64,000 bases of DNA from Candidatus Bipolaricaulota bacterium (GCA_030611415.1 JAUWPW010000002.1:19761-83760); one strand, 5' to 3'; numbered from the stretch's first letter, positions 22,766 to 60,645 are shown. Notes: a model not told the origin generated them from the letters alone. Translations and numbers: made by a program.

Positions 22766-22809
22766 GAAGACCGACCCGAACCTTGGTCTTAGTTGCGTGG
22801 GATATACAA

Positions 22810-22897: not shown

Positions 22898-22902
22898 GAA
22901 TT

Positions 22903-24679: not shown

Positions 24680-25264
24680 ATGCTAAAAGATATGAAACAC
24701 GAGGATGTAGTGGGTAAAGGGGTTCGTGCTTTGCGACAACACAAGGGATGGACGCTAGAGGAACTCTCCTCCCGTTGTCGTCTTTCGATAAGTTTCCTTT
24801 CCCAGATTGAACGGGGCCTTTCTTCTCTTTCGATCTCGTCGCTTCATTCGATCTGTGAAGCGCTGGAAGTGCCGATGACCCACTTTTTTGCTACTACTAC
24901 CGCAGAGGGGCCCCTTGTGGTGAGAGCAGGTAAACCCCGTAGCAGGCTACGGATCGAGGATTCACAGGTAACGTACAACTTCTTGTCTAGATTGACGCCC
25001 GAGCGGGTGCTCGAGGCGTTGATCGCGGAATATCCGCCTCACTACAACCCTCCGCTTGTCACGCACGAGGGCGAGGAGTTTGGCTACGTCCTTGAAGGAA
25101 AGGTTTTGCTACACGTCACCGATCAGGAAGAGATGCTCGTACCAGGCGATAGTTTCCACATCATTTCCTCACAGCTGCACACGGTTCAAAACACGTCGGA
25201 TAAGCCGGCAAGGATCTTGTGGGTACTCACAATGAAACTCTTAGAAAGAGGAGGACATCTGTAA
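24680..25264 (+). CDS. XRE-family HTH + C-terminal cupin transcriptional regulator
   Basis: N-terminal HTH_3 (LRQHKGWTLEELSSRCRLSISFLSQIERG) and C-terminal cupin (GEEFGYVLEGKVLL). First gene of the plus-strand supercluster; TAATG overlap with hyuA. Confidence 0.75.
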   Translation: MLKDMKHEDVVGKGVRALRQHKGWTLEELSSRCRLSISFLSQIERGLSSLSISSLHSICEALEVPMTHFFATTTAEGPLVVRAGKPRSRLRIEDSQVTYNFLSRLTPERVLEALIAEYPPHYNPPLVTHEGEEFGYVLEGKVLLHVTDQEEMLVPGDSFHIISSQLHTVQNTSDKPARILWVLTMKLLERGGHL

Positions 25265-27324
25265 TGGCAAAACGGGTAGCCATCGATATTGGCGGAACGT
25301 TTACCGATCTTGTTGCCATGGATGAGGTAACGGGTGAGGTCGTTTTGGAGAAGGATCTCACCACGCCAGAGAACTTCGCCAAGGGTGTTACTCATACCAT
25401 GCGAAAAAGCAAAATTGACCCAAAGGAGATTTCTCAATTTGTACATGGCACTACAGTAGTGGTAAACGCCTTGACCGAGCGAACGGGAGCGAAAACAGCT
25501 CTCGTTACCACGCATGGCTTTCGTGATGTTCTTGAAATTCAGCGAGCGAATAGGACAGACATGTACAATCTTTTCTATCAAAAACCTAAGCCATTTGTTC
25601 CACGCAGGTTTCGATTCGAGGTGCGAGAACGGCTCAATTACCGGGGTGAAGTACTGCAAGCGCTAGTAGAAGAAGATGTGGTTGCAGCAGTAAATGAATG
25701 CAAGAAGGCCGGCATAAGGGCAATAGCTGTTTGTTATATTCATGCATACGCCAATAATGAACACGAACAAAGAACACGAGAGATCATAAAGAAGATGTAT
25801 CCTGAGGCATCTGTAACTGTGTCGCATGAGATAACTCAGGAGTGGCGGGAATACGAGCGCACCAATACAACAGTATTTAACGCCTACGTTCAACCATCAT
25901 CACAGCTGTACCTCTCTACTTTAGATGAGGAGCTCTCTACGATGGGAGTAGTAAGTACAAGATACGCCATGCAGTCGAATGGAGGAACAGCAACCTTCCT
26001 ACAGGCCAAACAGGTTCCTATCCACTTGGTCGAATCAGGACCGGTTGGTGGAGTGATCGGGGCAAGTATTATTGCTGAAGTAGTAGACGCAAAGAGCGTT
26101 ATCTCATTTGATATGGGAGGGACCACTGCCAAGGTGAGCCTCATAGATAATGGACAATTGAAGATCAATACTTCCTATAATTTGGAGAAAACGGCTACGT
26201 CAGCAGGGTATCCGGTAAAGATCCCTGTGCTTGACATCGTCGAAGTAGGAGCAGGGGGCGGTTCAATCGCATGGATTGATCACGGGAATGCGTTGCATGT
26301 GGGACCGCGAAGTGCAGGTGCTGATCCCGGACCAGCGTGTTATAACCTTGGTGGGACCCAACCCACCGTTACCGACGCAAACCTTGTCACAGGCCGATTG
26401 AGCCCAGATTACTTTCTTGGCGGACAGATGAAACTGGACGTTGATCGTGCCAAACAAGCGGTTCAGAAGATTGCCAAGCCGTTTGGAATATCGGTGCTGG
26501 AAGCTGCTTTAGGGATTATCAGGCTTGCTAATGCTAACATGCAGGCGGCGTTGGAACGGGTGAGCATCGAGCGGGGATACGACCCACGGGAATTTGCTCT
26601 TGTCGCTTCGGGCGGTGCAGGTGCCCTGCATGGGGCAACACTCGCCCGGGATCTACATATGCGCAAGGTGATCGTTCCGCGTGCCCCGGGTCAGTTCTCC
26701 GCTTGGGGAATGCTGATGACCAACCTGCGTCACGACTTAATCCGGACTCGGTTAATGTCTTGTAACATCTCTACGTTGCCAGAGATCGCTCAATCTTTCT
26801 CTAAATTGGAAGAAGAGACTCGAGAGACATTCCGCCAGGAGAGATTTCCCTTGGAGCGAGTGTGGTTGGAGCGCTTCTTGGATCTTCGTTATGAGGGCCA
26901 AGAGCATACAGTGCGTACCCCAGTATATGAAGAAGACCTGCACGACAAAGATGGTTTTGCAGCTCTGATTGACAAGTTCCATGAGCTGCACGAACAGGCA
27001 TACTCGTTCCGCCAAGATGACCCAGTGGAGATTGTGAACTTCCACATGGTAGGCTGGGGGAAGGTGGACAAACCCTCCTTTAAACCATTAGATGAACAAG
27101 GGCGAGACTTCGACGGTGCGTTCAAGGGAGAAAGACCGCTACACTTCGAGGGGATAGGCACAGTACAAAGCAAGGTCTACGAAAGGGATTTGCTCCCACC
27201 CTTCTGTGTCATTGATGGCCCAGCTGTAGTTGAGGAAGCAGCGTGTACAACCATCGTCTGTCCGAAGCAACGCCTGACAGTGGACCGCTTCGGAAACCTG
27301 GTCATTACGGAGGTGACAAAGTGA
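25264..27324 (+). CDS. hyuA: hydantoinase/oxoprolinase family protein, A subunit (HyuA / N-methylhydantoinase A-like)
   Basis: About 686 aa; N-terminal VAIDIGGTFTDLV motif and full Hydantoinase_A architecture. Confidence 0.85.
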   Translation: MAKRVAIDIGGTFTDLVAMDEVTGEVVLEKDLTTPENFAKGVTHTMRKSKIDPKEISQFVHGTTVVVNALTERTGAKTALVTTHGFRDVLEIQRANRTDMYNLFYQKPKPFVPRRFRFEVRERLNYRGEVLQALVEEDVVAAVNECKKAGIRAIAVCYIHAYANNEHEQRTREIIKKMYPEASVTVSHEITQEWREYERTNTTVFNAYVQPSSQLYLSTLDEELSTMGVVSTRYAMQSNGGTATFLQAKQVPIHLVESGPVGGVIGASIIAEVVDAKSVISFDMGGTTAKVSLIDNGQLKINTSYNLEKTATSAGYPVKIPVLDIVEVGAGGGSIAWIDHGNALHVGPRSAGADPGPACYNLGGTQPTVTDANLVTGRLSPDYFLGGQMKLDVDRAKQAVQKIAKPFGISVLEAALGIIRLANANMQAALERVSIERGYDPREFALVASGGAGALHGATLARDLHMRKVIVPRAPGQFSAWGMLMTNLRHDLIRTRLMSCNISTLPEIAQSFSKLEEETRETFRQERFPLERVWLERFLDLRYEGQEHTVRTPVYEEDLHDKDGFAALIDKFHELHEQAYSFRQDDPVEIVNFHMVGWGKVDKPSFKPLDEQGRDFDGAFKGERPLHFEGIGTVQSKVYERDLLPPFCVIDGPAVVEEAACTTIVCPKQRLTVDRFGNLVITEVTK

Positions 27325-29054
27325 GAAAAAAAAGCGCTATTGACCCCTTTACAGTGGAAGTGATCAAGAGAGCGTTAATCTCTGCCGCAGAACAGATGTT
27401 TGTTGCTTTCGGCCGTACGAGCAAGAGCTCAGTCATCTACGAGGTGCTCGACTATGGTTGTGCAGTTACCGATGCGCGTGCACGCATGATTGCCCAAGCG
27501 AACGGGATACCTCCGTTCATTGGCGTACTTGGCGATGCAGTCAAAGAAGTGCTCGACAAGTTCGGCTTAGATGAGCTTGACGAAGGAGACGTAATCATCC
27601 TAAACGACCCCTACATGGGTGGAGCTACCCATCAGAATGATGTGGTATTGCTGATGCCTGTTTTCTACGAGGGGCACCCAGTCATGTTTGCGGCAAGTAA
27701 AGGTCACTGGAACGATATTGGTGGAAAGGATCCTGGCAGCTGGTCTCCCAATGCAACCGAGATTTACCAAGAGGGACTACAGTTTCCAGCTGTCAAACTA
27801 TTTGAGGGCGGCAAGGAAGTTCAGGGGATTGTGGACATCTTGACGCGCAACATCCGAATTCCAGAGATGATCCTGGGAGATATGCGGGCGCAGGCAGCCT
27901 CGTTGCAGGTTGCGGGGAACCGCATCACTCAGATTTGCGACAAGTACGGACTCGATACGGTCCTTGAGTCGATCGAGATCTATCTGGAACAGGGTAGACA
28001 AGAAGCGCTTGAGGAGCTGAAGTCTTTGCCCAAAGGGGAATTCATCGCAGAGGAATACATTGATGATGATGGACTGGGTGGCGATCCGGTGCTGGTCAAA
28101 GTGAAGGTAACAATCACTGATGACGAGTTTGTGGTCGATTACACCGGAACAGGGAAGACATGCCGTGGCCCGATCAACGCTCCCTTATCGGCATTAATCA
28201 GTACAGCGAAATTCGCCTACAAGGCTGTGGTTAGTCCGCACGGCTCCTCAAATGAAGGTTTGTTTGCCCCGTTGAAGGTGATCGTTCCCGAAGACACGGT
28301 CTTCAACCCTAAGCGTCCCGCTCCAGTCAGCACATATTGGGAATCGGATAGTTACGCAGGAGACGTAGTCTGGAAGGCGTTGGCTGATGCAATTCCGGAA
28401 CGGATTACAGCCGGACACTTTCTAAGCGTCTGTGGTACCACGGTAAGCGGTATTGATGATGAGTCAGGCGAATGGTTCTTCTCTGTTGAACCAAACGCTG
28501 GTGGTTGGGGGGCAGGCAAGGGCAAAGATGGAGAGAACGGTCTTGTTTGTTCCGGAGACGGCGAGACATACGTTCTATCGGTGGAAGTTGCAGAAACTCG
28601 ATATCCATTCATTGTTGACCAATTCTGTCTAAGTATAGCTAACGGCGGACACGGTAAATGGCGTGGTGGATATGGGCTAGTGAAGGACTATCGTATCACG
28701 AACTCCAAGACCTTTGTGACCGCAAGTTTCGGGCGGAACAAGTTCCCTCCGTGGGGACTCGCCAAGGGGATGCCCGGCACTCCGAACTCGGTCGAGGTTC
28801 GAACTGCAGCTGGCAACGTGGAACAGCGAGGACGCTTCTCCAAGGAAGAACTAGCGACCGGGGACGTGGTCCGGTTTATCACTGGTATGGGAGGTGGGTA
28901 CGGAGATCCCATGAAACGCGATCCTCAAGCCGTGCTCGATGACGTCCTCGATGGTTATATCACGCCCCAGATAGCTCGAAAGGTGTATGGAGTTGCTGTT
29001 GTTGGCGATCCAGTGGGGATCGATGAGGTCAAGACAAATCAACTAAGGGAGTGA
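27321..29054 (+). CDS. hyuB: hydantoinase B / oxoprolinase family protein (HyuB / N-methylhydantoinase B-like)
   Basis: About 577 aa; GTG start after GGAGGTG, GTGA overlap with hyuA; DPFTVEVIKRAL N-terminus typical of HyuB. Confidence 0.85.
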   Translation: MRKKSAIDPFTVEVIKRALISAAEQMFVAFGRTSKSSVIYEVLDYGCAVTDARARMIAQANGIPPFIGVLGDAVKEVLDKFGLDELDEGDVIILNDPYMGGATHQNDVVLLMPVFYEGHPVMFAASKGHWNDIGGKDPGSWSPNATEIYQEGLQFPAVKLFEGGKEVQGIVDILTRNIRIPEMILGDMRAQAASLQVAGNRITQICDKYGLDTVLESIEIYLEQGRQEALEELKSLPKGEFIAEEYIDDDGLGGDPVLVKVKVTITDDEFVVDYTGTGKTCRGPINAPLSALISTAKFAYKAVVSPHGSSNEGLFAPLKVIVPEDTVFNPKRPAPVSTYWESDSYAGDVVWKALADAIPERITAGHFLSVCGTTVSGIDDESGEWFFSVEPNAGGWGAGKGKDGENGLVCSGDGETYVLSVEVAETRYPFIVDQFCLSIANGGHGKWRGGYGLVKDYRITNSKTFVTASFGRNKFPPWGLAKGMPGTPNSVEVRTAAGNVEQRGRFSKEELATGDVVRFITGMGGGYGDPMKRDPQAVLDDVLDGYITPQIARKVYGVAVVGDPVGIDEVKTNQLRE

Positions 29055-29332
29055 ATGCTGCGGAGCGCTTTCGATTGATAGACACTACGAGTTGACTGAT
29101 CTCGATTGTAGAAGAGGAGAAAATATAGAGTGGCCGACTTGAAACGATACGAAAGAAAATTGACACCGGTAAGTACTCTATGATGGGCGATACCGCGCAG
29201 TTCGAGTCGTTCTCTGACTCTCTTGTCGATAGTGTTGTCGATCATGTAGGCTTTCAGGAGAGGAGGTGATCAGAAAAAGGAAAGGCAAGAAGTTGAAGGA
29301 AAACGTTTACTTTCTTTCTTAAGGAGGCTAAC

Positions 29333-30907
29333 ATGAAAGGAAAGATTGTTGTTGTTGTTGGTTTGGTGATTTTGAGTATCGGTTTGGTCGCATGGGGCGG
29401 AGGTCCTTTGCGAGCTACTTTTGCTTGGCCAACTTACATTGACCCAGCAGTAGGATCTGACTTCTCCAGTTCCTCATCGCTCGTTAATCTGTACGACTCC
29501 CTTGTCTACCCGGATGCAAAAGGGGATCCTCTGCCACATGTAGCCACTGCGTGGGAAACGTCCGATGATACACTGATCTGGACTTTCCATCTGCGTGACG
29601 ACGTTACGTTCCACGACGGAACTCCTCTCACGGCGGAGGATGTAAAGTACTCCATGGACCGTCTGACGACGATCGGGGAGGGATACGCGTTCCTGTTCTT
29701 GGGACGATTGGCAAGCACGGATGTGATTGATGATTACACTGTGCAGTTCAATCTAGCTCAACCGTTTGGACCTTTCCTCTCCACACTTTACCGATTGTAC
29801 ATCCTGAACAAGGATGTTGTGGAGGCTAATATCGAGACGCCTGGCCCCTATGGAGATAAGGGCGACTATGGAAAGGGATATCTCCTTGTCAACGATGCTG
29901 GCAGTGGCCCGTACGTGTTGAAGGAGTTCAGGCTCGAAGAAGAGCTGGTGATGACGAAGAATCCGAACTACTGGATTCCCATTGACGTCGACGCACCTGA
30001 CGAAGTCCGGTTCATAGGAACGACCGAGGCAGCGACGGTCCGTACGATGATGTCGCGCAAGGAACTGGAGATCGCCGATCAGTGGCAGTCTCAAGAAGCA
30101 CTGGTCGCTTTGGATGCGATGGAAGGTGTGGATATCGCTGCATTCTCACCGGGGACCGCGTTTTACCTGATGATGAATACGCGTATTCCACCCACAGACG
30201 ATATCCATTTCCGCAAGGCAATGGCCTGGGCGACCGACTACGCGACGGTGGTGGAGTACATCTTCCCAGGTGCGTTCCAAGCCTGCGGTCCCATTCCTCA
30301 GAACATTCCTGGGGCAGATCCGACCGTCTTCCAGTACTATCGAGACCTCGATAAGGCGCGCGAGGAGCTTGCACTCTCCAAGTACTCTGCTGATGAGTAC
30401 GAGATTGAGTTCCACTGGATTGCCGAAGTCCCGGACGAGGAGAAGGTCGCGCTCTCCTTCATGTCCAACATGGCCGATATCGGGATCAACATAAAGGTCG
30501 TCAAGGTTCCGTGGATGTCGGTTGTCGAGGAGATGGGGGCAGTTGAAACCAGCCCGCACATCGTCTCGATCTTCGATTCATCTCACTACCCTGAGGCGGG
30601 CTCCCTGCTTGAATCGCGCTACCACTCAAACTCGGCTCCTACATGGGAGCAGAACGAGTGGCTGCTCGACACTGGACTTGATGCCATGCTTGAGTCGGCG
30701 ATAAACACGGTCGACTGCGCAGAGCGATTCGCGAAGTACGCAGGATTACAGCACATGATCACCGCTCTGTGTCCGACCATCTTCCTCTTTGAGCAGGTGG
30801 AGAAGCATGCCTATCAGTCGGCTTATATAGATTGGCCGACGGCGGCTGGCGAGGTGAACCCAGTGATGGGCTACAACCTGGCGGCTCGCTTCATCAAGGT
30901 GGATTAG
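29333..30907 (+). CDS. ABC transporter substrate-binding protein, family 5 (peptide/opine/nickel type)
   Basis: Signal peptide plus SBP_bac_5 fold; TAAGGAGG SD. Confidence 0.85.
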   Translation: MKGKIVVVVGLVILSIGLVAWGGGPLRATFAWPTYIDPAVGSDFSSSSSLVNLYDSLVYPDAKGDPLPHVATAWETSDDTLIWTFHLRDDVTFHDGTPLTAEDVKYSMDRLTTIGEGYAFLFLGRLASTDVIDDYTVQFNLAQPFGPFLSTLYRLYILNKDVVEANIETPGPYGDKGDYGKGYLLVNDAGSGPYVLKEFRLEEELVMTKNPNYWIPIDVDAPDEVRFIGTTEAATVRTMMSRKELEIADQWQSQEALVALDAMEGVDIAAFSPGTAFYLMMNTRIPPTDDIHFRKAMAWATDYATVVEYIFPGAFQACGPIPQNIPGADPTVFQYYRDLDKAREELALSKYSADEYEIEFHWIAEVPDEEKVALSFMSNMADIGINIKVVKVPWMSVVEEMGAVETSPHIVSIFDSSHYPEAGSLLESRYHSNSAPTWEQNEWLLDTGLDAMLESAINTVDCAERFAKYAGLQHMITALCPTIFLFEQVEKHAYQSAYIDWPTAAGEVNPVMGYNLAARFIKVD

Positions 30908-31016
30908 TCGCAAAATAAGCAGATCCCTCTTATCGGGGATTCATGCGCCAATGGGTGGGAAAGGTTTATCTCTTTCCCACCCCTCCTTGGGACCCACAAG
31001 AGAAGGACGGCAATTG

Positions 31017-32045: not shown

Positions 32046-32047
32046 AC

Positions 32048-32932: not shown

Positions 32933-32933
32933 G

Positions 32934-35678: not shown

Positions 35679-35683
35679 GGAAT

Positions 35684-38463: not shown

Positions 38464-38472
38464 GAGAAAGAT

Positions 38473-38742
38473 ATGGATCTGAAAGCCATTATCGAATCTG
38501 ATGCAAGGTACCGCAACGTGCTTCAGGAGATTATCGATACCCCGTACATCGAACGGTCGACGTTGGAGGAGAAACTGAACCTCCCCCGAGCCGATCTAGA
38601 GTCGCTGTTGACGGTTCTTTCTGAGAAGATGTTGATCCTAGAGCTTGCTGGCCAGGCGGATTCAAGCGTTGAGTCACGTGTATTGAAAACAGTGTACCTG
38701 GTCAACCCTGAGGAAGAGAAGGGCATTCGTGAACACCTCTAA
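38473..38742 (+). CDS. small hypothetical protein (89 aa, acidic)
   Basis: AGGAGGTG SD about 11 nt upstream; overlaps the M24 start by 14 nt. Confidence 0.4.
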   Translation: MDLKAIIESDARYRNVLQEIIDTPYIERSTLEEKLNLPRADLESLLTVLSEKMLILELAGQADSSVESRVLKTVYLVNPEEEKGIREHL

Positions 38743-39847
38743 CTCTACGGAACACGCAAGGCGGCTTGACGCGCTGCTTGAACGGATGCGCGAGCATGAG
38801 TTGGGGCTCGTCCTTCTCTTCGATCGGGACAATATTCGCTACTTCACGGGTTTCCGGTTGAACCGGGTGGTCGCCTCCATCTTGGCGATCTCCCCTGAGG
38901 AAGGTCCGACTTACATCGTGGCGAAATTGGACCTAAACCGTGCGAAAAGGGATGGATGGATCGAGCGGGTCATCCCGTTTCCAGAGGACACCCCAAATTA
39001 CCTCGACGCTCTGCGTCCTCTGTTCGGCAATTCGGGCAAACGGATCGGCGTTGAAAAGGACTCGCTGACTCTGTCGCAGGCCGAGTATCTACGTGGTTTG
39101 AGTAGTGAGAAGAGTGAGTTCGTCGATGTGCGCGCTATCACATCCGAGTTGCGTGCAATCAAGTCTGATGAGGAGATCGCCTGCCTTCGGCGAGCGGCCG
39201 AGATTGCCAGTAATGTCATGGAACTGGTGCAGGGTGCTATTCGGCCGGGCGTTCGCGAGATCGAGCTCTCCTCCTGGACAGAGTACCTCATTGGACAGGA
39301 AGGCGCGGAAGGTGCCTCGTTTGAACCGTTCTTCATGTCGGGCGAGAACGCGTGGCTTCCGCAGCGAATCTCATCGCAGAAGGTGTTGGCTGAAGGGGAA
39401 CTGGCTCTGTTGGATATGGGCGCGATCTACGATGGTTATTGCTCAGATATCACACGGACTTTTGCCATTGGTGACATCTCACCGGAGCAAGAGCAAATCT
39501 TTCGGGTTGCACGAGAGGCGCAACAAGCGGGGATCGAAGCGATTCGTCCCGGTGTTCGTGCCTGTGATGTTGATGCCGCTGCACGAACTGTGATCGAGGA
39601 CGCTGGCTTCGGGGAGTACTTCCCGCACCTCACTGGGCATGGAATTGGGATCTCCTCGCATGAGATGCCGATTGCGGACCGCGGGGTAGAGACGATCCTC
39701 CAATCGAGTATGGTCCTGACCGTGGAACCGGGGATCTATCTTCCGGGGATAGGTGCAGCGCGCGTCGAGGACATGGTGGTCGTCACCCCACTCGGATGTG
39801 AGGTTCTGACCAGCGCTCCGCGTGGACTAACGGGGAAAAAGGAGTAA
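38729..39847 (+). CDS. M24-family Xaa-Pro peptidase/creatinase-fold hydrolase
   Basis: Creatinase_N-like N-domain (RLDALLERMREHELGLVLLFDRDNIRYFTGF) plus pita-bread metal-ligand region (D..D...H...E..E pattern). Confidence 0.8.
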   Translation: MNTSNSTEHARRLDALLERMREHELGLVLLFDRDNIRYFTGFRLNRVVASILAISPEEGPTYIVAKLDLNRAKRDGWIERVIPFPEDTPNYLDALRPLFGNSGKRIGVEKDSLTLSQAEYLRGLSSEKSEFVDVRAITSELRAIKSDEEIACLRRAAEIASNVMELVQGAIRPGVREIELSSWTEYLIGQEGAEGASFEPFFMSGENAWLPQRISSQKVLAEGELALLDMGAIYDGYCSDITRTFAIGDISPEQEQIFRVAREAQQAGIEAIRPGVRACDVDAAARTVIEDAGFGEYFPHLTGHGIGISSHEMPIADRGVETILQSSMVLTVEPGIYLPGIGAARVEDMVVVTPLGCEVLTSAPRGLTGKKE

Positions 39848-39849
39848 AA

Positions 39850-40995
39850 GTGGGTGTAAGAGAGATCCTTCGCAAGTGGGGAGTTACCGACTTCCAAGTG
39901 ATCGATAAGAAGGCGCTTTCGGAGATCACCTTAGGTGCGTCGATCCTGGCCACCGGAGGCGGGGGAGATCCTGAGATCGGCCTTCTGTGGGCGTATAACG
40001 TGGTCGATCAGGGAAAGGAGATCCTCCTTATTGACCCTGAGGCGATGCCCGATGAGGCTTTGGCGGCGATCGCCGGGTGCCTTGGAGCAGCGCTTGTTCT
40101 CACCGAGAAACCACCGAATGGTCAAGAGCTCTTCTGGTGTTATGACAGTCTGCGCCGTTACATGGGCAAGTCGATCGAGGCTGTTGTTCCCCCGGAGGCC
40201 GGTGGGGTCAATACGCCGGTCCCGATGGCCGTGGCTGGGGCAGTCGGGATTCCCGTCATCGACGCCGATGGTATGGGACGCGCCTTTCCCGAGCTGCAGA
40301 TGACCTCCTTCTACATCCACGGGGTCTCCCCGTCGCCAACGGCGGCGGCGGATGAGAAGGGACACGTGACTATCTGCGACGCATCAGATGCACTGCTGAC
40401 GGAGCGGATCATCCGCAACGCGGCGATGGCCTACGGGGGTATCTCATGGATCGCGGGGTATCCGATGACCGGGCGCCAGCTCAAGGATACGGCGATCTTG
40501 CGATCTATATCCATGGCCTGGGATCTGGGGAAGCGCGTATTCAACGCGCGGCGCAAGCACCTCGATCCTATTGCTGAGGCTATTAATCTCACCGGAGGAT
40601 ACCGTGCGTTTCAAGGGAAGATCGTCGACATCGATCGGGAATTCGGGGCGGAGAAGACTAAGGGTTTCTCCCTTGGGCGGATCACGGTGGAGGGGACCGA
40701 CGATTTCAAGGGACGGACCGTCGTCGTCGATTTCCAGAACGAGTGGTTGAACCTGGAGATCGATGGAGAAGTTCGCTGCATGCCGCCGGATCTGATCTGC
40801 ATCCTCGACCCGGCGACCGGGGAACCGATCCGCACAGACATCGTGCGCTACGGATATCGAGGGACTGTGCTTCTCATCCCCGCACACGAACGGATGCGGA
40901 CAGAACGGGGGATCGCCACGTTCGGTCCTCGCTACTTCGGTTACGATCGGGACTACATCCCTGTGGAGAGGCTCATGGAGAGCACAAGTGGATGA
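39850..40995 (+). CDS. DUF917-family protein, copy 2 (paralog of 37285..38463)
   Basis: Same motifs as copy 1 (ASILATGGGGDPEIGLLW, GGVNTP...GIPVIDADGMGRAFPELQMT), high identity by eye; GTG after AAGGAG. Confidence 0.7.
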   Translation: MGVREILRKWGVTDFQVIDKKALSEITLGASILATGGGGDPEIGLLWAYNVVDQGKEILLIDPEAMPDEALAAIAGCLGAALVLTEKPPNGQELFWCYDSLRRYMGKSIEAVVPPEAGGVNTPVPMAVAGAVGIPVIDADGMGRAFPELQMTSFYIHGVSPSPTAAADEKGHVTICDASDALLTERIIRNAAMAYGGISWIAGYPMTGRQLKDTAILRSISMAWDLGKRVFNARRKHLDPIAEAINLTGGYRAFQGKIVDIDREFGAEKTKGFSLGRITVEGTDDFKGRTVVVDFQNEWLNLEIDGEVRCMPPDLICILDPATGEPIRTDIVRYGYRGTVLLIPAHERMRTERGIATFGPRYFGYDRDYIPVERLMESTSG

Positions 40996-41975
40996 GGATT
41001 CAGCGTTTTGTCCAAGTCGTCGACACTCATACTGCTGGTGAACCGACGCGTGTGGTCCTTGACGGACTTCCTCCCATCCCCGGCAAAACGATGGCCGAGC
41101 GGCGTGCGTGGTTCGATGGACCGGGCAACGACCTGCGGCGGTTCCTCCTGCGGGAACCACGTGGACACACGGATATGTTCGGAGCAGTTATCACCCCGCC
41201 CATTAACCCGGCAGCAGATTATGGACTGATCTTCCTCGATAACGGCGGGACGCTTTCGATGTGCGGGCATGGAACGATCGGAGCAGTGACCGCCCTGGCT
41301 GAACTAGGACGAATCCACAAGAAAGAGGTTCTACTCGATACTCCATCCGGCCTTGTGACCTGTCACCTTCATTGGAAAGAGGGCGAGGTTCAGGATGTTA
41401 CCTTTCGTAATGTTCCTTCTTTCTTCCTAAGGACTGTGCAATGGAAAGGGGTCCCGCTTCACCTTTCCTACGGGGGGAATCTCTTTGCTCTAGTGGAGGC
41501 AAGTTCCCTGGGCGTTGAACTTAAGCGGCAGAATATACGTGAGATCGTGGATCTTGGAATGATGATCAGAAGCTGGACCAACCGGAACCTCACCTTTCAC
41601 CATCCCGCGACAGGGAATCCTTTGTTAGTAGATCTGGTGGAATTCTACGAGGAGACCGATCCTCCGAGGAATGTTGTCGTTTTCGGAAGGGGACAGGTCG
41701 ACCGGTCCCCTTGTGGAACGGGAACCTGCGCCAAGATGGCTTTTCTCCACGCGGAAGGGAAGCTCGCTGTGGGGGAGGAATACCGCTACCAAAGCATCTT
41801 GAAGACAGAGTTTACAGGAAAAATAATCTCTGAGACGAACGTAGGAGATACCCCAGGGATCATCCCCGAGGTGAGAGGATCTGCTTACGTAATGGCTCTT
41901 GGCTCCCTCGTTCTTACGAAGGACGATCCGTTTCCGGCAGGCTTTGATCTGGAAAATGAAGAGGTAAAGCACTAA
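40992..41975 (+). CDS. proline racemase / 4-hydroxyproline 2-epimerase family enzyme (Cys/Cys type)
   Basis: MRIQRFVQVVDTHTAGEPTRVV N-terminus; both catalytic Cys motifs (SMCGHGTIG and DRSPCGTGTCAKMA). ATGA overlap with DUF917 copy 2. Confidence 0.85.
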   Translation: MRIQRFVQVVDTHTAGEPTRVVLDGLPPIPGKTMAERRAWFDGPGNDLRRFLLREPRGHTDMFGAVITPPINPAADYGLIFLDNGGTLSMCGHGTIGAVTALAELGRIHKKEVLLDTPSGLVTCHLHWKEGEVQDVTFRNVPSFFLRTVQWKGVPLHLSYGGNLFALVEASSLGVELKRQNIREIVDLGMMIRSWTNRNLTFHHPATGNPLLVDLVEFYEETDPPRNVVVFGRGQVDRSPCGTGTCAKMAFLHAEGKLAVGEEYRYQSILKTEFTGKIISETNVGDTPGIIPEVRGSAYVMALGSLVLTKDDPFPAGFDLENEEVKH

Positions 41976-42053
41976 CATCGAGCGAAAAATGAGGGTGCCG
42001 TATTGTCGTCACGAGAGCCAAGCTGGTTTAGCAGAGGCACAATCAGGGAGAAC

Positions 42054-44150
42054 ATGACAGACTATCGAATCAAGAAACATCCTATTTTGTCGGTTGAATC
42101 AAGCAAGAACATCACCTTCTATTGGCAGGGACAACCGCTTATCGCCAAGGAAGGCGAGATGATTACTTCTGCTCTTTTTGCCAATGGAGTCAAGACCTTT
42201 GGACATCATTCCAAAGATGGTGCGCCGCAGGGTATCTTTTGTGCCAATGGTCAGTGCGCCCAATGCCTGGTAATTGCGGAGGGGGTACCGGTAAAGGCCT
42301 GTATGACGCCAGTTGAGGCAGGTATGCGCGTCGAGCCAAGTGCTGGCTTGCCTGATCTGCCCAAGGTAGAACAAGTTCCATCTATGAGCAAAACGGAAAG
42401 CATAGCCGTGCCTGTGCTCATTATCGGTGGCGGCCCGGCAGGAATGTCAGCAGCTGCCGAACTTGGAAGCCACGGGATCAGAGCGCTACTTGTAGATGAC
42501 AGGCATCGCCTGGGAGGGAAGCTTGTATTACAAACTCATCGCTTTTTTGGTTCTACCAATGCTGTTCACGCTGGAACACGGGGAATTGATATTGCTACAC
42601 AACTGGAGAACGAGACCAAGAAACATGACACAACCGATGTCTGGCTAAATAGCGTAGCTGTTGCAGTTTTCAGCGATCACAAAGTAGGTATTCTCCAGGA
42701 TAACAGAACCTATGTTCTTGTTCGACCACAGGTACTACTGGTAGCAACAGGAGCACGTGAACGGTCACTGGTCTTTAGGGGAAACACGCTGCCGGGTGTT
42801 TATGGTGCTGGGGCGTTTCAAACACTGGTCAATCGTGACTTGGTAAAACCTAGCAAACGGTTGTTTATCGTCGGTGGAGGGAATGTTGGATTAATTGCTG
42901 GCTATCACGCCCTTCAAGCCGGCATCCAAGTGGTAGGGTTAGTTGAGGCTTTGCCCGAGTGCGGCGGCTACAAAGTCCACAGGGATAAGTTGGTTCGCAT
43001 GGGCGTCCCTATTTACACTTCGCATACTGTTCTTAGTGCCAATGGTGAAACGCAAGTGAAATCTGTAACGATTGCTCGAGTTGACGAACATTTCCAAGCG
43101 ATTCGCGGAACGGAGAAATCATTTGCCTGTGACACAGTATTGATTGCCGTGGGATTGAATCCCGTGAATGAGTTCTACGAAAAGGCCCAGGAATACAAGA
43201 TGCAAGTATTTGCTGCGGGTGATGCACAAGAGATTGCCGAGGCATCCGCGGCAATGTTCACTGGTAAGATTGCGGGGCTAAAAGTAGCTAGAGCGCTTGG
43301 GGTAGATGTTGGGGAAATCCCTTCGGAATGGGCCCGGATGGCTGAGATCCTCAAGTCTGGTCATGGAAAAGTTGACCCGGAAGGAATTCCGACTCAGACG
43401 GAAGGTGTCTTTCCTATTCTTCACTGTTACCAAGAAATCCCGTGTGATCCTTGCGCATATGCTTGCCCATTAGGACTCATTGACATTGATGAAAGTGATA
43501 TCAGACATCGTCCCAAGTTTATCGGGCCTGAGATTGGCAAGAAGTGCATTGGCTGCGAGAATTGCATTACAGCTTGCCCGGGACTGGCAATCACATTGGT
43601 TGATTACCGGCAGGACAAACAGATGCCAACTGTGGCTCTTGCTTATGAGTTTCTTCAAGAGAGTATCAAGCAAGGGCAAACCGTTACCGTAGTCGACACT
43701 GAGGGAGAGGTGCTGGGTGAAGTAGAAGTGAAAAGCGTTCAACTCGCTGCAAAGAGAGATCATACTGCGGTTGTGAAAGTAGAGGCTCCCAAAGCTTATG
43801 CCAAACGCATTGCCGGAATCCGCGTACAGAAACCGTTGGTGTCTGCTCCGCTATCTGAGGTACCCGAGAACATGAAAGATGAGATGATCGTATGTCGCTG
43901 TGAACGGGTGACTGCAGGTGAAATCCGTCAACTGATTCGCGAGGGCTGCCGTGACATGAACGAGATCAAAGCGATAACACGAGCGGGAATGGGCGCATGC
44001 GGCGGTAAGACTTGCACTGAACTAATCAGACGAATCTTCCGTGAGGAAGGGATTTGTATAGAAGAGGTCAGCGAACTCGTTAAGCGTCCGTTGTTTGTTG
44101 AAGTTCCATTTGGGTCCTTCGCTGGCGTGAAGGAGGATAACGATGGATAG
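42054..44150 (+). CDS. Fe-S flavoprotein oxidoreductase alpha-like subunit (N-terminal 2Fe-2S, FAD/NAD(P) domain, 4Fe-4S, BFD-like 2Fe-2S)
   Basis: Cys clusters CANGQCAQC..C, CIGCENCITACP and CRCERVTAGEIR...ACGGKTC; GGGPAG and GGGNVG dinucleotide folds. Architecture like OoxA/HcnB/PdhA-type subunits. Start ATG 42054 or TTG 42003. Confidence 0.75.
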   Translation: MTDYRIKKHPILSVESSKNITFYWQGQPLIAKEGEMITSALFANGVKTFGHHSKDGAPQGIFCANGQCAQCLVIAEGVPVKACMTPVEAGMRVEPSAGLPDLPKVEQVPSMSKTESIAVPVLIIGGGPAGMSAAAELGSHGIRALLVDDRHRLGGKLVLQTHRFFGSTNAVHAGTRGIDIATQLENETKKHDTTDVWLNSVAVAVFSDHKVGILQDNRTYVLVRPQVLLVATGARERSLVFRGNTLPGVYGAGAFQTLVNRDLVKPSKRLFIVGGGNVGLIAGYHALQAGIQVVGLVEALPECGGYKVHRDKLVRMGVPIYTSHTVLSANGETQVKSVTIARVDEHFQAIRGTEKSFACDTVLIAVGLNPVNEFYEKAQEYKMQVFAAGDAQEIAEASAAMFTGKIAGLKVARALGVDVGEIPSEWARMAEILKSGHGKVDPEGIPTQTEGVFPILHCYQEIPCDPCAYACPLGLIDIDESDIRHRPKFIGPEIGKKCIGCENCITACPGLAITLVDYRQDKQMPTVALAYEFLQESIKQGQTVTVVDTEGEVLGEVEVKSVQLAAKRDHTAVVKVEAPKAYAKRIAGIRVQKPLVSAPLSEVPENMKDEMIVCRCERVTAGEIRQLIREGCRDMNEIKAITRAGMGACGGKTCTELIRRIFREEGICIEEVSELVKRPLFVEVPFGSFAGVKEDNDG

Positions 44151-45297
44151 TCATGACGTTATCATCATCGGTGCGGGAAGTGTGGGTATTCCTGCTGCCC
44201 TGGCAATGGCACGGGCCGGTCTCAAGATATTGGTGCTTGATAGGTTTGCCAGTGAGGGTCAAGGTTCAAGCAAATCTGCGATCGGCGGTGTCCGTGCCAC
44301 TCACTCTGACCCAACAAAGATCCGTTTGTGTAAGCGTTCCCTCGAAATCCTTTCTACATGGAAAGAAACTTATGGCCATGACATTGAATGGACTACAGGT
44401 GGCTATTCGTTTGTTGCCTACCGCGAGCAAGAGGAGAAAACACTTAAAGATTTGCTTAGAATACAACGCGCCTATGAGCTCAATATTGATTGGTGTGACA
44501 GGAATGAATTGCTCGATGTCATCCCCGATCTGAACCCAATCGATCTTATCGGCGGAACCTTCTCGCCCGATGATGGTCATTGCTCTACCCTGCTTGTTGC
44601 CCACGCTCTATACGAAGAGGCAAAGCGCACAGGAGCAGTCTTTCACTTTGGCGAGACGGTTGAAGCCATTCTCATCAACGGAGGACGTATACAGGGGGTA
44701 AGAACCAATAGGTGCGAATACCCCGCTAGGGTAGTACTAAATGCTGCCGGAGCGTGGGCAAAGCAAGTGGGAAGAATGGTGGGGTTTGAACACCCTGTGA
44801 ATCCCGATTCTCACGAAGCAGGAATTACTGAACCGGTTGCTCACTTTCTTGATCCAATGGTAGTTGATATCCGTCCCGCGCCAGGCTCACTAAACTACTA
44901 CTTCTACCAGCTTTCTACCGGACAGGTTGTATTCTGCATTACGCCAAGTCCAAGTATTTGGGGGTTTGACTGTTCAGAAACCAGCACATTCTTGCCAATG
45001 ATCTCCCATCGCATTGTTGACTTGATGCCACGACTGGCAAACATCCGCGTGCGTCGCAGTTGGCGTGGTCTTTACCCAATGACTCCGGATGGCTCACCAC
45101 TAGTTGGGTGGGCCAAGGAGATAGAGGGATATCTAATGGCAATTGGAATGTGTGGTCAGGGGCTCATGCTCGGGCCAGGTTTAGGCGAGCTTCTTGCTCG
45201 CATGGTCACACAAGACGAACTGTCTTCGAAAGATCAGGAAACCTTGGGATACCTGTCACCGTATCGAGATTTCTCTGCCGCGGAACAACTCAAATAG
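44143..45297 (+). CDS. FAD-dependent oxidoreductase beta-like subunit (DAO family; sarcosine-oxidase-beta / D-hydroxyproline dehydrogenase-like)
   Basis: DVIIIGAGSVGIPAALAMARAG FAD fold, 384 aa; AGGAGG SD; overlaps the alpha stop. Confidence 0.8.
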   Translation: MDSHDVIIIGAGSVGIPAALAMARAGLKILVLDRFASEGQGSSKSAIGGVRATHSDPTKIRLCKRSLEILSTWKETYGHDIEWTTGGYSFVAYREQEEKTLKDLLRIQRAYELNIDWCDRNELLDVIPDLNPIDLIGGTFSPDDGHCSTLLVAHALYEEAKRTGAVFHFGETVEAILINGGRIQGVRTNRCEYPARVVLNAAGAWAKQVGRMVGFEHPVNPDSHEAGITEPVAHFLDPMVVDIRPAPGSLNYYFYQLSTGQVVFCITPSPSIWGFDCSETSTFLPMISHRIVDLMPRLANIRVRRSWRGLYPMTPDGSPLVGWAKEIEGYLMAIGMCGQGLMLGPGLGELLARMVTQDELSSKDQETLGYLSPYRDFSAAEQLK

Positions 45298-60370: not shown

Positions 60371-60645
60371 TGGAAAAAGGTGAGTTATTTGGTATATGTA
60401 CTTATATAGCGGCAAGTGCAGAAAAACTAAAGGATGAACCGAAAGAGTATGGACCGTTACGTCTCCTTGAGGTGCTCAGCCAGCTAGCAACACTGGGGGC
60501 TACGGAATATGACGACAACTTCTTAAGAGAGGTTGCCCAACAGGTGAAAGAAAAACAAGGCCTTGTCATGACCGACAGAAAGGCGTTTTACGATTTCCTT
60601 ACCCAACTCGTCATCCAGTTCGCAAAGGAAGCAAAGAAGAGATAA
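60370..60645 (+). CDS. small hypothetical protein (about 91 aa)
   Basis: GGAGG SD 5 nt upstream of ATG 60370; TAATG overlap with the nitroreductase gene. Confidence 0.45.
   Translation: MEKGELFGICTYIAASAEKLKDEPKEYGPLRLLEVLSQLATLGATEYDDNFLREVAQQVKEKQGLVMTDRKAFYDFLTQLVIQFAKEAKKR

Follow-up and report, generated by a model that had tools for sequence, protein, structure and literature searches.

What compound is handled by a tightly packed run of genes for ring-opening, racemising, peptide-cleaving and proline-oxidising enzymes in a Candidatus Bipolaricaulota bacterium? The run occupies positions 24680-45297 of the 64,000-nt stretch of DNA that we analysed (the window). Same-strand runs with tight spacing are frequent in bacteria, but this block is more than chance because its synteny is conserved. 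From its sequence, we propose that it is a catabolic island, modular and laterally mobile, that breaks down cyclic amides derived from peptides, with proline-containing 2,5-diketopiperazines, cyclo(Xaa-Pro), as the likeliest substrates. We consider this reading about evenly poised between right and wrong.

Gene content and conservation

The original prediction counted 20 co-directional plus-strand ORFs. Strand and coordinates stand, but the 20.6 kb hold 17 intact genes and one pseudogene (Table 1). Independent gene callers called the core genes identically on near-identical contigs. All quoted overlaps proved correct: TAATG at 25262-25266 (regulator gene and hyuA), GTGA at 27321-27324 (hyuA and hyuB), ATGA at 34908-34911, TAATG at 37283-37287, ATGA at 40992-40995, and ATGGATAG at 44143-44150 between the alpha and beta subunit genes. 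Only three gaps exceed 10 nt: 278 nt (29055-29332), 109 nt (30908-31016) and 78 nt (41976-42053). They had been placed correctly; the first is not empty but holds the pseudogene.

Table 1 Features of the cluster and of the distal cyclodipeptide oxidase (CDO) locus, numbered from the first letter of the window
Feature	Coordinates	Strand	Length (aa)	Family or basis
XRE-type HTH and cupin transcriptional regulator	24680..25264	+	194	Pfam HTH_3 5e-11, Cupin_2 3e-17
HyuA, full-length ATP-dependent hydantoinase/oxoprolinase/lactamase alpha subunit	25264..27324	+	686	Pfam Hydant_A_N, Hydantoinase_A, Hydant_A_C
HyuB, hydrolytic beta subunit	27321..29054	+	577	Pfam Hydantoinase_B 7e-167
DUF6092 (CDO B subunit) pseudogene remnant in 278-nt gap	29069..29248	+		tblastn
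Substrate-binding protein (SBP), family 5 (Opp/Dpp/Nik-type)	29333..30907	+	524	Pfam SBP_bac_5 1.5e-67
Perfect 11-bp GC-rich hairpin in 109-nt gap	30953..30982	+		GGGTGGGAAAG-N8-CTTTCCCACCC
ABC permease 1, OppB/DppB-like	31017..32045	+	342	Pfam BPD_transp_1, BPD_transp_1_N
ABC permease 2, OppC/DppC-like	32048..32932	+	294	Pfam BPD_transp_1, OppC_N
ABC ATPase 1, OppD-like	32934..33920	+	328	Pfam ABC_tran, oligo_HPY
ABC ATPase 2, OppF-like, GTG start uncertain	33904..34911	+	335	Pfam ABC_tran, oligo_HPY
Asp_Glu_race racemase (PF01177)	34908..35678	+		Pfam Asp_Glu_race 4.5e-34
HyuA2, short HyuA-like ATPase	35684..37285	+	533	Pfam Hydant_A_N, Hydantoinase_A only; no HyuA C-terminal domain
DUF917a, S-Me-THD-like	37285..38463	+	392	
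Winged-helix protein, second regulator or subunit	38473..38742	+	89	Conserved position, AF2/Foldseek
M24B Xaa-Pro dipeptidase (prolidase)-like enzyme	38729..39847	+	372	Pfam Creatinase_N, Peptidase_M24
DUF917b, ancient DUF917a paralogue	39850..40995	+	381	Pfam S-Me-THD_N, S-Me-THD_C
Proline racemase/hydroxyproline epimerase-type enzyme	40992..41975	+	327	Pfam Pro_racemase 4e-97
Alpha subunit, Fe-S flavoprotein electron transfer; alternative TTG start 42003	42054..44150	+	698	Pfam Fer2_4, Pyr_redox_2, Fer4_7, Fer2_BFD
Beta subunit, DAO-family amine/imino-acid dehydrogenase	44143..45297	+	384	Pfam DAO 2e-62
Distal intact CDOA-like nitroreductase	59825..60370	+	181	Pfam Nitroreductase 2e-31
Distal intact CDOB-like DUF6092 protein	60370..60645	+	91	Pfam DUF6092 (PF19585) 2.8e-17, above cut-off
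M20 peptidase/amidohydrolase adjoining the distal CDO pair	60663..61736	+	357	Pfam Peptidase_M20, M20_dimer

The predicted family assignments all hold in Pfam, although the listed order needed correction: HyuA-like, DUF917, an 89-aa protein missing from the prediction's title, M24 and DUF917. None of the products reaches a curated equivalog cut-off in NCBIfam, so each represents an uncharacterised subfamily.

We surveyed 76 metagenomic loci and several genomes, counting for each gene only the loci long enough to judge. The block is a conserved neighbourhood in relatives, the point on which the prediction had staked itself, and gene order is kept across Bipolaricaulota, Aerophobetes and Bacillota. 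Bacteria in culture that carry the core include Biomaibacter acetigenes and Cytobacillus oceanisediminis. A six-gene core, each member of which occurs in 92-100% of judgeable loci, consists of the racemase (38/39), HyuA2 (41/41), DUF917a, the 89-aa winged-helix protein (46/47, at the equivalent position), the M24 prolidase (43/43) and DUF917b (34/37). Peptide importer genes are present in 19-28 of 27-36 loci (~70-80%), the proline racemase in 24 of 32 (75%) and the alpha subunit in 14 of 25, or ~56% for the alpha/beta module. The cluster is built of modules: the regulator plus HyuAB, the peptide importer, the core of six genes, and the proline racemase together with alpha/beta.

This modularity speaks against the proposed single unit under the regulator at its head. 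XRE-cupin homologues are linked to the cluster in relatives, but they and HyuAB take different positions. The regulator itself is PuuR-like, far under the equivalog cut-off (75 bits against 211). The 89-aa protein found no match in Pfam or NCBIfam; its wing motif ELxxQAxSxxESRVPK..Y..NPE is invariant. Its AF2 model (pLDDT 81) resembles MarR/ArsR-type winged-helix regulators in Foldseek (TM 0.65-0.75, E ~1e-3), and it is possibly a second regulator inside the core. The set would be regulated by the XRE-cupin protein and possibly also by this small protein.

A modular cluster in which the regulator and HyuAB move about, and from which the proline racemase and alpha/beta are absent in a quarter to nearly half of loci, could also be a mosaic with no single pathway. 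It would then combine independent modules for scavenging peptides, all serving amino-acid fermentation: an importer of oligopeptides, a prolidase, an oxidation route for proline, and enzymes of the 5-oxoprolinase type that act on pyroglutamate or another lactam. The surrounding peptidases (M42, PepC-like and M20 here; C69, M19 and NicX/M29-like in relatives) fit such a role. We nevertheless regard this as rather unlikely. The core order is identical and its genes almost always occur together from Bipolaricaulota to Bacillota, and the importer, CDO pair and HyuB keep their relative order across ~50-90% protein identity. The junctions overlap or span a few nucleotides, and such conservation would be unusual for unrelated functions.

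A cyclodipeptide oxidase linked to the cluster

The DUF6092 remnant in the 278-nt gap matches the in-cluster DUF6092 of relatives L001 (55% identity over 60 aa, tblastn E 1e-17) and L084 (46% over 57 aa), and its frame carries two in-frame stops. At the same position, relatives encode intact nitroreductase and DUF6092 genes; of the 18 loci that extend far enough, 15 have the pair immediately upstream of the SBP gene, and in many relatives a HyuB orthologue directly precedes both. The DUF6092 family, PF19585, is that of the CDO B subunit (CDOB; bioRxiv 10.1101/2023.09.25.559410). The L084 nitroreductase has AlbA (6e-34) and 9EXV_A as its best PDB matches, with ordinary nitroreductases twelve orders of magnitude behind.

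Farther downstream, 14.5 kb from the cluster, the window has an intact pair (59825-60645). Its nitroreductase best matches 9EXV_A, which was deposited with an AlbB chain, and AlbA (8UC3_A), both at E ~1e-24, and shares 39-40% identity with the CDOA encoded in the clusters of relatives. Its DUF6092 protein matches AlbB weakly (9EXV_C, E 0.048). The adjoining M20 enzyme is 59% identical to the L001 M20, which sits immediately upstream of the L001 CDO pair. The distal CDOA is probably linked functionally to the cluster, though it lies outside it. A CDO is not obligatory, because the Bacillota core versions L003 and L086 lack the pair and the in-cluster copy in the window is dead.

The only known substrates of cyclodipeptide oxidases are cyclic dipeptides, and PF01177, DUF917, dipeptide ABC transporters and peptidases are over-represented in gene clusters that have a CDO but no cyclodipeptide synthase (CDPS), a co-occurrence reported in 2023 without explanation (bioRxiv 10.1101/2023.09.25.559410). 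The original prediction knew of no described pathway of this composition; that stands, although part of the gene association is already in that study.

A racemase and two candidate ring-opening systems

The PF01177 racemase keeps both catalytic cysteines: its Cys77 and Cys183 correspond in the alignment to Cys79/Cys184 of KpAllR. Its specificity positions V10, F15, V117 and G118 match Ile20, Phe25, Leu131 and position 132 of OpaE, whereas allantoin racemases have Asn, Met, Thr and Thr (PMC12661438). Among 54 orthologues linked to the cluster, 49-53 share this signature. The enzyme thus carries the hydrophobic pocket signature of OpaE-type cyclic-peptide epimerases and not the allantoin/hydantoin type. 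NozR, of the same subfamily, takes part in cyclo-D-Trp-D-Trp synthesis (PMC12661438). The OpaE substrate, however, is a fused tripeptide-derived heterocycle, unlike a simple diketopiperazine, which counts against our reading.

HyuA carries a DIGGTFTD ATPase motif, and its closest curated family is the caprolactamase CapA (551 bits against a cut-off of 1000); HyuB scores 279 bits with CapB (cut-off 1000). HyuA2 has an invariant DVGGTFTD motif and keeps 58-98% identity throughout Bipolaricaulota, Aerophobetes and Bacillota; it adjoins DUF917 in 41/41 loci and is never paired with HyuB. Canonical HyuA loci are the opposite, with HyuB in 64/79 and DUF917 in 0/79. DUF917b shares 55-62% identity with DUF917a, against 61-88% with its orthologues from other phyla. 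The association suggests a second machine, in which the lactam oxygen would be phosphorylated by HyuA2 and DUF917 would take over hydrolysis from HyuB.

These genes also recall the classical hydantoin route, in which imported 5-substituted hydantoins would be racemised, opened by HyuAB (and HyuA2/DUF917) and passed to an M20-type carbamoylase that cleaves the N-carbamoyl amino acid, with the prolidase and proline genes as add-ons. HyuA, HyuB and the racemase belong to the hyuA/hyuB/hyuE gene families, M20 enzymes of the L-carbamoylase family flank the cluster in relatives and occur in the window, and the sole named DUF917 relatives work on thiohydantoins. The CDO study likewise read such neighbourhoods as hydantoin- or allantoin-related (bioRxiv 10.1101/2023.09.25.559410). 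We think this route unlikely here. Asn/Asp12, which is 100% conserved among allantoin-hydantoin racemases, is absent from the racemase of the cluster, as are the Thr118/Thr119 contacts, and the window cluster has no carbamoylase inside it. The invariant core prolidase, with its dipeptidase metal site intact, would have no role, and the CDO linkage, peptide-type importer and proline enzymes would go unaccounted for. The DUF917 fold, moreover, resembles no solved structure except the uncharacterised 2O3I.

All characterised CDOs are biosynthetic, as are NozR and OpaE, so the genes might instead tailor a modified cyclic dipeptide natural product. That is highly improbable: neither a CDPS nor an NRPS was found in the window cluster or any locus inspected, the transporter is a binding-protein-dependent importer, the prolidase and proline dehydrogenase are degradative, and the carriers are streamlined fermentative lineages.

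Prolidase and predicted proline oxidation

The M24 enzyme best matches the prolidases 3Q6D (1e-65) and 1PV9 (7e-61). Creatinases lack the five M24 metal ligands. All are kept here (D229, D240, H304, E333 and E347), which identifies a prolidase and excludes a creatinase; of the predicted Xaa-Pro or amidino hydrolysis, only the former survives. The proline racemase (346 bits against the NCBIfam cut-off of 556) has Cys91 and Cys241 within SMCGH and DRSPCGTG motifs, a pair that marks a racemase/epimerase and not a dehydratase (PMC4364671). In Thermococcus, a proline racemase also clusters with L-proline dehydrogenase genes (PMC4364671). Among PDB entries, the beta subunit is closest to its counterpart in the L-proline dehydrogenase complex of Pyrococcus horikoshii (1Y56_B, 1e-52; the next match is at 1e-23). 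The alpha subunit best matches PH1363 (1Y56_A, 6e-23, N-terminal 276 residues only) and sarcosine oxidase alpha.

The 2Fe-2S, flavin, BFD-like and DAO domains of alpha/beta form an architecture like that of the opine oxidase and D-hydroxyproline dehydrogenase families. Together with the weak similarity of the SBP to the staphylopine-binding protein CntA, this could indicate catabolism of opine-like or N-alkylated imino acids, the SBP importing an opine-type conjugate, alpha/beta oxidising it and the lactamases opening an opine lactam. Very little favours this once it is considered that alpha/beta is the least conserved module (~56% of loci), that the beta subunit best matches an L-proline dehydrogenase, and that the CDO, prolidase and OpaE-like racemase would have no place. 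A creatinine/creatine route, with HyuAB as N-methylhydantoinase (the family to which it belongs), M24 as creatinase (it has a Creatinase_N domain) and alpha/beta as sarcosine oxidase/dehydrogenase (it matches those families), deserves almost no credence, being largely refuted by the metal site and prolidase match, by the poorer match of the beta subunit to sarcosine oxidase beta (5e-14), by the absence of creatinine deaminase and carbamoylsarcosine amidase, and by the unexplained proline racemase and peptide importer.

A candidate route for cyclo(Xaa-Pro) breakdown

A 2,5-diketopiperazine substrate is indicated by the CDO pair in relatives, the decayed DUF6092 with the intact distal pair, and the OpaE-type racemase pocket. 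Proline-containing cyclic dipeptides had been among the substrates first suggested, and the CDO linkage, the racemase pocket and the intact prolidase metal site now favour them. In the route that we propose, each step is assigned from family membership and gene linkage. A cyclic dipeptide would enter through the family-5 binding protein and Opp/Dpp-type importer, and the two-cysteine racemase, with its OpaE-like hydrophobic pocket, could epimerise D/L stereocentres on the piperazinedione ring. One ring amide would be opened at the expense of ATP by HyuA/HyuB and/or by HyuA2 with the two DUF917 paralogues. The M24 prolidase may then cleave the Xaa-Pro dipeptide, and the proline racemase and PDH1-like alpha/beta dehydrogenase would convert D/L-proline to pyrroline carboxylate and pass electrons on. 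The CDOA/CDOB pair belongs to the same cluster in most relatives, with a decayed copy here and the intact pair 14.5 kb away.

Several points weigh against this proposal. No product reaches an equivalog cut-off, the in-cluster CDO copy is dead, and the proline racemase and alpha/beta do not occur in 25-45% of loci. The named DUF917 relatives are only thiohydantoin desulfurases, whose substrates are five-membered rings, and the scheme does not explain why the ATP-dependent system and DUF917 each come in two versions. Characterised CDOs are also O2-dependent, whereas the lineages here are probably anaerobic (bioRxiv 10.1101/2023.09.25.559410). On the other hand, many annotated oxoprolinases have been proposed to be lactamases or cyclic dipeptide hydrolases (Otzen et al., PMC6061476), and PMC3852281 describes diketopiperazine-degrading enzymes as mostly unknown. 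The cluster is widely conserved yet uncharacterised.

Importer genes and intergenic signals

The SBP reaches no NCBIfam equivalog and begins with a hydrophobic signal-like segment. Its gene is separated from that of permease 1 by the hairpin, and we prefer the permease start at 31017 over 30951 because the hairpin sits between them. In 17/17 other lineages examined, this gap also contains a hairpin, of 10-14 bp and different sequence. The hairpin has no T-tract and is therefore not called an intrinsic terminator. At the other end of the cluster, an AT-rich spacer that carries a near-consensus promoter (45435-45463) comes after the beta-subunit stop.

Gene content and organization of the cluster

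The cluster under study is real, conserved and uncharacterised, and it is catabolic. Its best-supported reading, which we consider about evenly balanced between right and wrong, is the import and ATP-driven opening of proline-containing 2,5-diketopiperazines, after which a prolidase would cleave the product and proline would be oxidised. Diketopiperazines are abundant compounds that arise spontaneously from peptides, above all proline-containing ones, and are also synthesised as signals and antibiotics; ordinary peptidases do not readily attack them. Which genes break them down is essentially unknown (PMC3852281), and our literature search found no paper describing a diketopiperazine catabolic gene cluster.

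The cluster comprises 17 intact genes, all in the same direction, and not the 20 of the original prediction; the gene overlaps quoted there are each present where it had placed them. Only three junctions exceed 10 nt (278, 109 and 78 nt). All Pfam assignments lie well over the gathering thresholds. None of the cluster proteins reaches an NCBIfam equivalog cut-off, and each product is thus an uncharacterised subfamily of a known family. Its close homologues carry a Candidatus Bipolaricaulota annotation, and the genes flanking the cluster are of the chromosomal housekeeping kind: PolA, FtsZ, rRNA, a thiamine operon.

Features of the cluster, in gene order, and of its surroundings, with the number of loci carrying each gene among those long enough to contain it
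Feature	Position	Strand	Assignment	Present/eligible loci
C1 peptidase gene	16746-18101	+	PepC/bleomycin-hydrolase-like	
thiL-like and importer genes	18126-22903	-	Probable thiamine operon	
TPP riboswitch	22797-22903	-		
M42 gene	22950-24017	-	Aminopeptidase	
Cluster	24680-45297	+	17 intact genes	
Regulator		+	XRE-HTH/cupin	
HyuA	25264-27324	+	PF05378, PF01968, PF19278, above gathering scores	
HyuB	27321-29054	+	PF02538 (7e-167); 4-nt overlap with HyuA	
CDOB relic	29069-29248		DUF6092	
Binding protein		+	Family 5	
Two permeases		+		
Two ATPases		+		
Racemase		+	Asp/Glu/hydantoin type	38/39
HyuA2		+	Short HyuA-like ATPase	41/41
DUF917a		+	S-Me-THD-like	
89-aa protein	38473-38742	+	Winged helix (model)	46/47
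M24 peptidase		+		43/43
DUF917b		+	S-Me-THD-like	34/37
Proline racemase		+		24/32
Alpha		+	698-aa Fe-S flavoprotein	14/25
Beta		+	DAO-family flavoprotein	13/23
Predicted promoter	45435-45463		Sigma-70 type	
RNase HI-like ORF	47839-48471			
tRNA	47869-47940			
23S rRNA	54968-58069	+		
5S rRNA	58107-58224	+		
Distal CDO-like pair with M20 gene	59825-61736	+		
Distal CDO-like pair	59825-60370/60370-60645	+	PF00881/PF19585	
M20 gene	60663-61736	+	M20 enzyme	

No plus-strand terminator-like site was found within the intergenic gaps of the cluster, and an Rfam search of it returned neither a riboswitch nor any other RNA element. Scans for promoter and terminator consensus sequences were uninformative, with counts under those of shuffled sequences. 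A perfect 11-bp hairpin occupies the gap separating the binding-protein gene from the first permease gene, and every other lineage examined has a strong hairpin of differing sequence in this same gap. It may be a transcript-stabilising or attenuating element that raises expression of the binding protein. An AT-rich spacer 3' of beta contains a near-consensus sigma-70-type promoter (TTGACA-17-TAAAAT with an upstream TG, 11/12 matches) that precedes a 139-aa ORF without a family match. Spacer and predicted promoter probably mark the end of the cluster unit.

Conservation and modularity across phyla

Tight packing and co-directionality are on their own weak evidence of a functional unit, and synteny is the decisive test. 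Among the inspected contigs with HyuA2 orthologues, the genes from the binding protein to beta occur in the same order in other Bipolaricaulota (loci L001/L002 and L084) and in Aerophobetes (L085). A six-gene core of racemase, HyuA2, DUF917a, small protein, M24 and DUF917b is kept in the Bacillota Biomaibacter acetigenes (L003) and Cytobacillus oceanisediminis (L086).

Searching metagenomes with DUF917a gave 76 loci, onto which the 17 window proteins were mapped, counting for each gene only the loci long enough to contain it. The ABC genes are present in 19-28 of 27-36 eligible loci, and many of the 76 loci have HyuB at their left end, immediately upstream of the importer. The genes are not scattered among relatives, an outcome that would have refuted the original prediction.

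The cluster is modular. The regulator and HyuAB lie downstream of beta in two loci (L001 and L099), and in L104-L111 a regulator sits between the proline racemase and alpha. We considered a mosaic of unrelated peptide-scavenging modules, with which such rearrangements would be compatible; it is less well supported than a diketopiperazine pathway, and the core genes recur together in nearly all eligible loci. The central block may have spread laterally, as suggested by its raised GC content (0.546-0.571 at 30000-42000, importer through proline racemase, versus ~0.48-0.50 in HyuAB, alpha/beta and the flanks) and by the ~70% identity of HyuA2 and DUF917a between Bipolaricaulota and Bacillota.

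Some differences between loci are strain-level variation. In L087 (Ga0307428_1000511) the core is 93-99% identical to that of the window, and other permease genes replace alpha/beta after the proline racemase. The Aerophobetes locus L085 carries an IS element (rve/HTH_Tnp_1) at 14385-15548 in the position of DUF917b. In the Cytobacillus locus (JAEMEG010000001.1) the core, here counted as five genes, is surrounded by three HyuA/HyuB pairs, one of them cut by the locus end, together with a second M24 gene, an MFS transporter, a DUF3830 protein and an M19 dipeptidase; neither an ABC importer nor a proline racemase occurs within 10 kb.

Two candidate ring-opening systems

HyuA has the full domain set of its family and is adjoined by the HyuB gene. 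Full domain sets and overlapping genes are features shared with the HyuAB, OplAB and CapAB lactamases, in which A phosphorylates the lactam and B hydrolyses it (PMC6061476). Caprolactamase is the nearest curated family, with scores of roughly half the cut-off or lower: unlike CapAB, the window proteins remain far under the equivalog cut-offs of 1000 bits (551 for CapA, 279 for CapB). Scores against acetophenone carboxylase (Apc) models are much lower than those for CapA/CapB. Otzen et al. suggested lactamase or cyclic dipeptide hydrolase activity for many proteins annotated as oxoprolinases (PMC6061476).

The ASKHA-type DxGGTxTD motif is present in both HyuA and HyuA2. HyuA2 is nevertheless no canonical HyuA: at 533 aa versus 686 aa, it has no match to the C-terminal domain PF19278, and two DUF917 proteins take the place of a HyuB partner. 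HyuA2 is followed by DUF917 in all 41 loci. A scan of contigs with the HyuA2 alignment served as a control: generic HyuA motifs retrieved almost exclusively distant HyuA/HyuB loci, usable as a negative set, and of these 79 canonical HyuA loci 64 contain HyuB and none contains DUF917. We infer that HyuA2 and DUF917a/b may constitute a second ATP-dependent cyclic-amide hydrolase with DUF917 in the hydrolytic role.

Both DUF917 proteins have the PF06032 + PF20906 architecture and the 2O3I fold of the DUF917/S-Me-THD family; 2O3I, which is uncharacterised, was the only DUF917-type structure found by PDB searches. The two are ancient paralogues, sharing 55-62% identity with each other and 61-89% with their respective orthologues from other phyla. 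The named members of the family, the thiohydantoin and S-methyl-thiohydantoin desulfurases (NCBIfam NF058529 and NF058532), have the same two-domain Pfam architecture. The window proteins differ from them in forming a pair of paralogues that is invariably linked to a HyuA-like ATPase, and they score 60-89 bits against the desulfurase cut-offs of 440-450. An exact-sequence look-up of DUF917a gave no match. Our literature searches found no paper on thiohydantoin desulfurase, S-Me-THD, PF06032 or ergothioneine catabolism that addresses DUF917 chemistry; the DUF917 papers found merely list the gene.

The 89-aa protein has no family match in Pfam or NCBIfam. Its predicted structure (pLDDT 81) is a winged helix like those of MarR/ArsR regulators (TM 0.65-0.75, E ~1e-3). 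The invariant portion is the wing (ESRVPK..Y..NPE) and not the recognition helix, so a role as subunit or adaptor is as plausible as one as regulator. The wing motif ESRVPK, otherwise at least 90% conserved, reads ESRVLK (Pro-to-Leu) in the window and its closest relatives.

A bolder claim, which we regard as possible yet rather improbable, is that this would be the first genetically defined microbial pathway of 2,5-diketopiperazine catabolism, and that its invariant core of HyuA2, DUF917a and DUF917b, perhaps joined by the winged-helix protein, would represent a new kind of ATP-dependent cyclic-amide hydrolase, with the DUF917 fold in place of HyuB. All parts belong to known families, and the gene association has been partly noted in the literature and never explained.

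The racemase and its cyclic-peptide relatives

The racemase has the two catalytic cysteines of allantoin/hydantoin racemases. Cys77 and Cys183 align with Cys79 and Cys184 of KpAllR, the positions changed to Ser in 3QVK, and the second catalytic cysteine is invariant in 54/54 orthologues. In allantoin-hydantoin racemases the substrate pocket has Asn/Asp12 (100% conserved), Met17, Thr/Ser118 and Thr119 in KpAllR numbering, whereas OpaE-like enzymes show [VIL]20, [YFW]25, [VIL]131 and [GP]132 (PMC12661438). In the window racemase V10, F15, V117 and G118 align with these four OpaE positions and match the hydrophobic OpaE-like pattern, an assignment by residue pattern and not by phylogenetic placement. 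The polar contacts (Asn/Asp12, Thr/Ser118, Thr119) are absent, and F15 replaces Met17. A classical hydantoin pathway, which would employ the same HyuAB and racemase families, is less well supported than diketopiperazine breakdown. The OpaE-type signature is kept in 49-53 of 54 distinct cluster-linked racemases.

OpaE epimerises a residue within a cyclised non-ribosomal peptide, and NozR, of the OpaE subfamily, takes part in making cyclo-D-Trp-D-Trp (PMC12661438). The likeness to both comprises the two catalytic cysteines and hydrophobic residues at the four pocket positions. In the PDB search the match to OpaE is modest (E 1e-17), and the top match is still KpAllR. This kinship could point to biosynthetic tailoring of a cyclic dipeptide, a reading with less support than catabolism: OpaE and NozR, of fungal and actinomycete origin, serve biosynthesis, whereas the window racemase is part of a catabolic, importer-linked cluster.

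Two tandem racemase copies occur in L001 (8369-9989) and in seven other relatives' loci (L098, L099, L130, L132, L133, L151 and L153); the window has one. The tandem copies are mostly 62-75% identical to the window copy, those of L151/L153 being 55-61% identical and on the opposite strand.

Linkage to cyclodipeptide oxidases

In relatives, the interval from HyuB (or from an M20 gene) to the binding-protein gene contains a PF00881 nitroreductase gene and a DUF6092 (PF19585) gene. This adjacent pair is present in 15/18 loci that reach far enough, and Andreas and Giessen (bioRxiv 10.1101/2023.09.25.559410) identify the two families as subunits A and B of cyclodipeptide oxidase (CDO). In PDB searches, the CDOA-like protein of the Bipolaricaulota locus L084 is closest to AlbA (8UC3_A, 6e-34) and to 9EXV_A (1.4e-33), ahead of the next nitroreductase at 5.5e-22. 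The cluster itself has no intact CDO pair between its ends, only a CDOB pseudogene remnant in the 278-nt gap, with 55% identity over 60 aa and two in-frame stops. An intact adjacent CDOA/CDOB-like pair with an M20 gene lies elsewhere in the window. Its CDOA matches 9EXV_A (1.8e-24) and 8UC3_A (4e-24), and its CDOB matches AlbB weakly (E 0.048). AlbA/AlbB, over generic nitroreductases, are thus the closest solved relatives.

Among CDO neighborhoods, 88% are without a cyclodipeptide synthase; overrepresented in these are PF01177 racemases, DUF917, dipeptide ABC transporters and peptidases, and no function has been established for them (bioRxiv 10.1101/2023.09.25.559410). The cluster and its relatives share with these neighborhoods CDOA and CDOB, the PF01177 racemase, DUF917 (PF06032), a dipeptide/oligopeptide ABC transporter and peptidases, and anaerobes are included; the window differs in that its in-cluster CDO is a pseudogene. 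That study stops at the enrichment, suggests purine metabolism or biosynthesis as the role, and defines neither a core nor a gene order or pathway. New here are a defined core and its ties to a prolidase, a proline racemase and dehydrogenase, and HyuAB.

Proposed import, dipeptide cleavage and proline oxidation

The importer is of the Opp/Dpp type, with a family-5 binding protein, two OppB/C-type permeases and two oligo_HPY ATPases; the binding protein reached no equivalog.

The proline racemase has a Cys91/Cys241 pair in MCGH and DRSPCGTG motifs. A Cys-Cys pair marks racemases and epimerases, and a Cys-Thr pair dehydratases (PMC4364671). The enzyme belongs to the proline racemase/hydroxyproline 2-epimerase type, with either substrate possible. 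At 346 versus a cut-off of 556 the proline racemase equivalog was not reached. Beta is closest to 1Y56_B (PH1364, the beta subunit of Pyrococcus L-proline dehydrogenase) at 1e-52, the next match being 1e-23. Alpha aligns with 1Y56_A (PH1363) over residues 13-276 only (6e-23) and has three extra Fe-S domains; at 698 aa it is longer than PH1363, to which it adds N-terminal 2Fe-2S, 2x[4Fe-4S] and BFD-like 2Fe-2S domains. A Cys-Cys racemase beside a DAO-type beta and a flavoprotein alpha is reminiscent of the Thermococcales proline racemase and dye-linked L-proline dehydrogenase (PDH1 alpha4beta4), and in Thermococcus the proline racemase gene adjoins the L-proline dehydrogenase genes (PMC4364671). 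Opine catabolism, in which these flavoproteins would act on an opine, is less well supported than diketopiperazine breakdown.

The M24 protein consists of Creatinase_N and an M24 pita-bread domain, with prolidase matches up to 1e-65. All five dinuclear-metal ligands (D229, D240, H304, E333 and E347) are kept, and their motifs align with the prolidase 3Q6D. It scores 230 bits against the cut-off of 630 for the PepQ equivalog NF040821. By domains and ligands it is predicted to be an M24B Xaa-Pro dipeptidase and not a creatinase or amidinohydrolase, and the amidino hydrolysis offered in the original prediction is abandoned. Creatinase has the M24 fold without the metal-binding ligands. We rejected this assignment given the intact ligands and the lack of any creatinase among the best PDB matches, and a creatinine route through the cluster is essentially excluded.

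Implications

Under the bolder claim above, HyuA-like/DUF917 pairs, which occur in many bacteria (Clostridioides difficile and Lactobacillus rhamnosus among them), would gain a function, and the 88% of CDOs outside biosynthetic clusters a catabolic role. The cluster would also assign functions to DUF917, to short HyuA-like ATPases and to these CDOs. The multi-phylum cluster offers concrete testable candidates: a peptide-type importer, a cyclic-peptide-type epimerase, two ATP-dependent ring openers, a prolidase and proline oxidation. It also suggests how subsurface fermenters (Bipolaricaulota and Aerophobetes) use recalcitrant dead-cell material. The hypothesis is directly testable because cultured organisms, namely Biomaibacter, Cytobacillus, Sporosarcina and Salinicoccus, carry the core.

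Genomic surroundings

Several peptidase genes lie near the cluster. The PepC-like C1 gene is in its vicinity, the M42 gene is directly upstream on the opposite strand and the M20 gene adjoins the distal CDO-like pair; relatives have further NicX/M29-like, C69 and M19 genes.

The 23S and 5S rRNA genes occur without a 16S rRNA gene in the 64-kb window, which suggests a split rRNA operon. Downstream of the TPP riboswitch come a thiL-like gene for thiamine-phosphate kinase and the three genes of an ABC importer (SBP_bac_6, a fused permease and a TOBE-domain ATPase), together probably an operon for thiamine salvage and uptake. The mechanical ORF start of ThiL overlaps the riboswitch, so its true start should be further downstream. 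Similarly, the 5' end of the mechanical RNase HI-like ORF includes the tRNA; since the protein resembles RNase H only from residue 35 onward, its true start should follow the tRNA.
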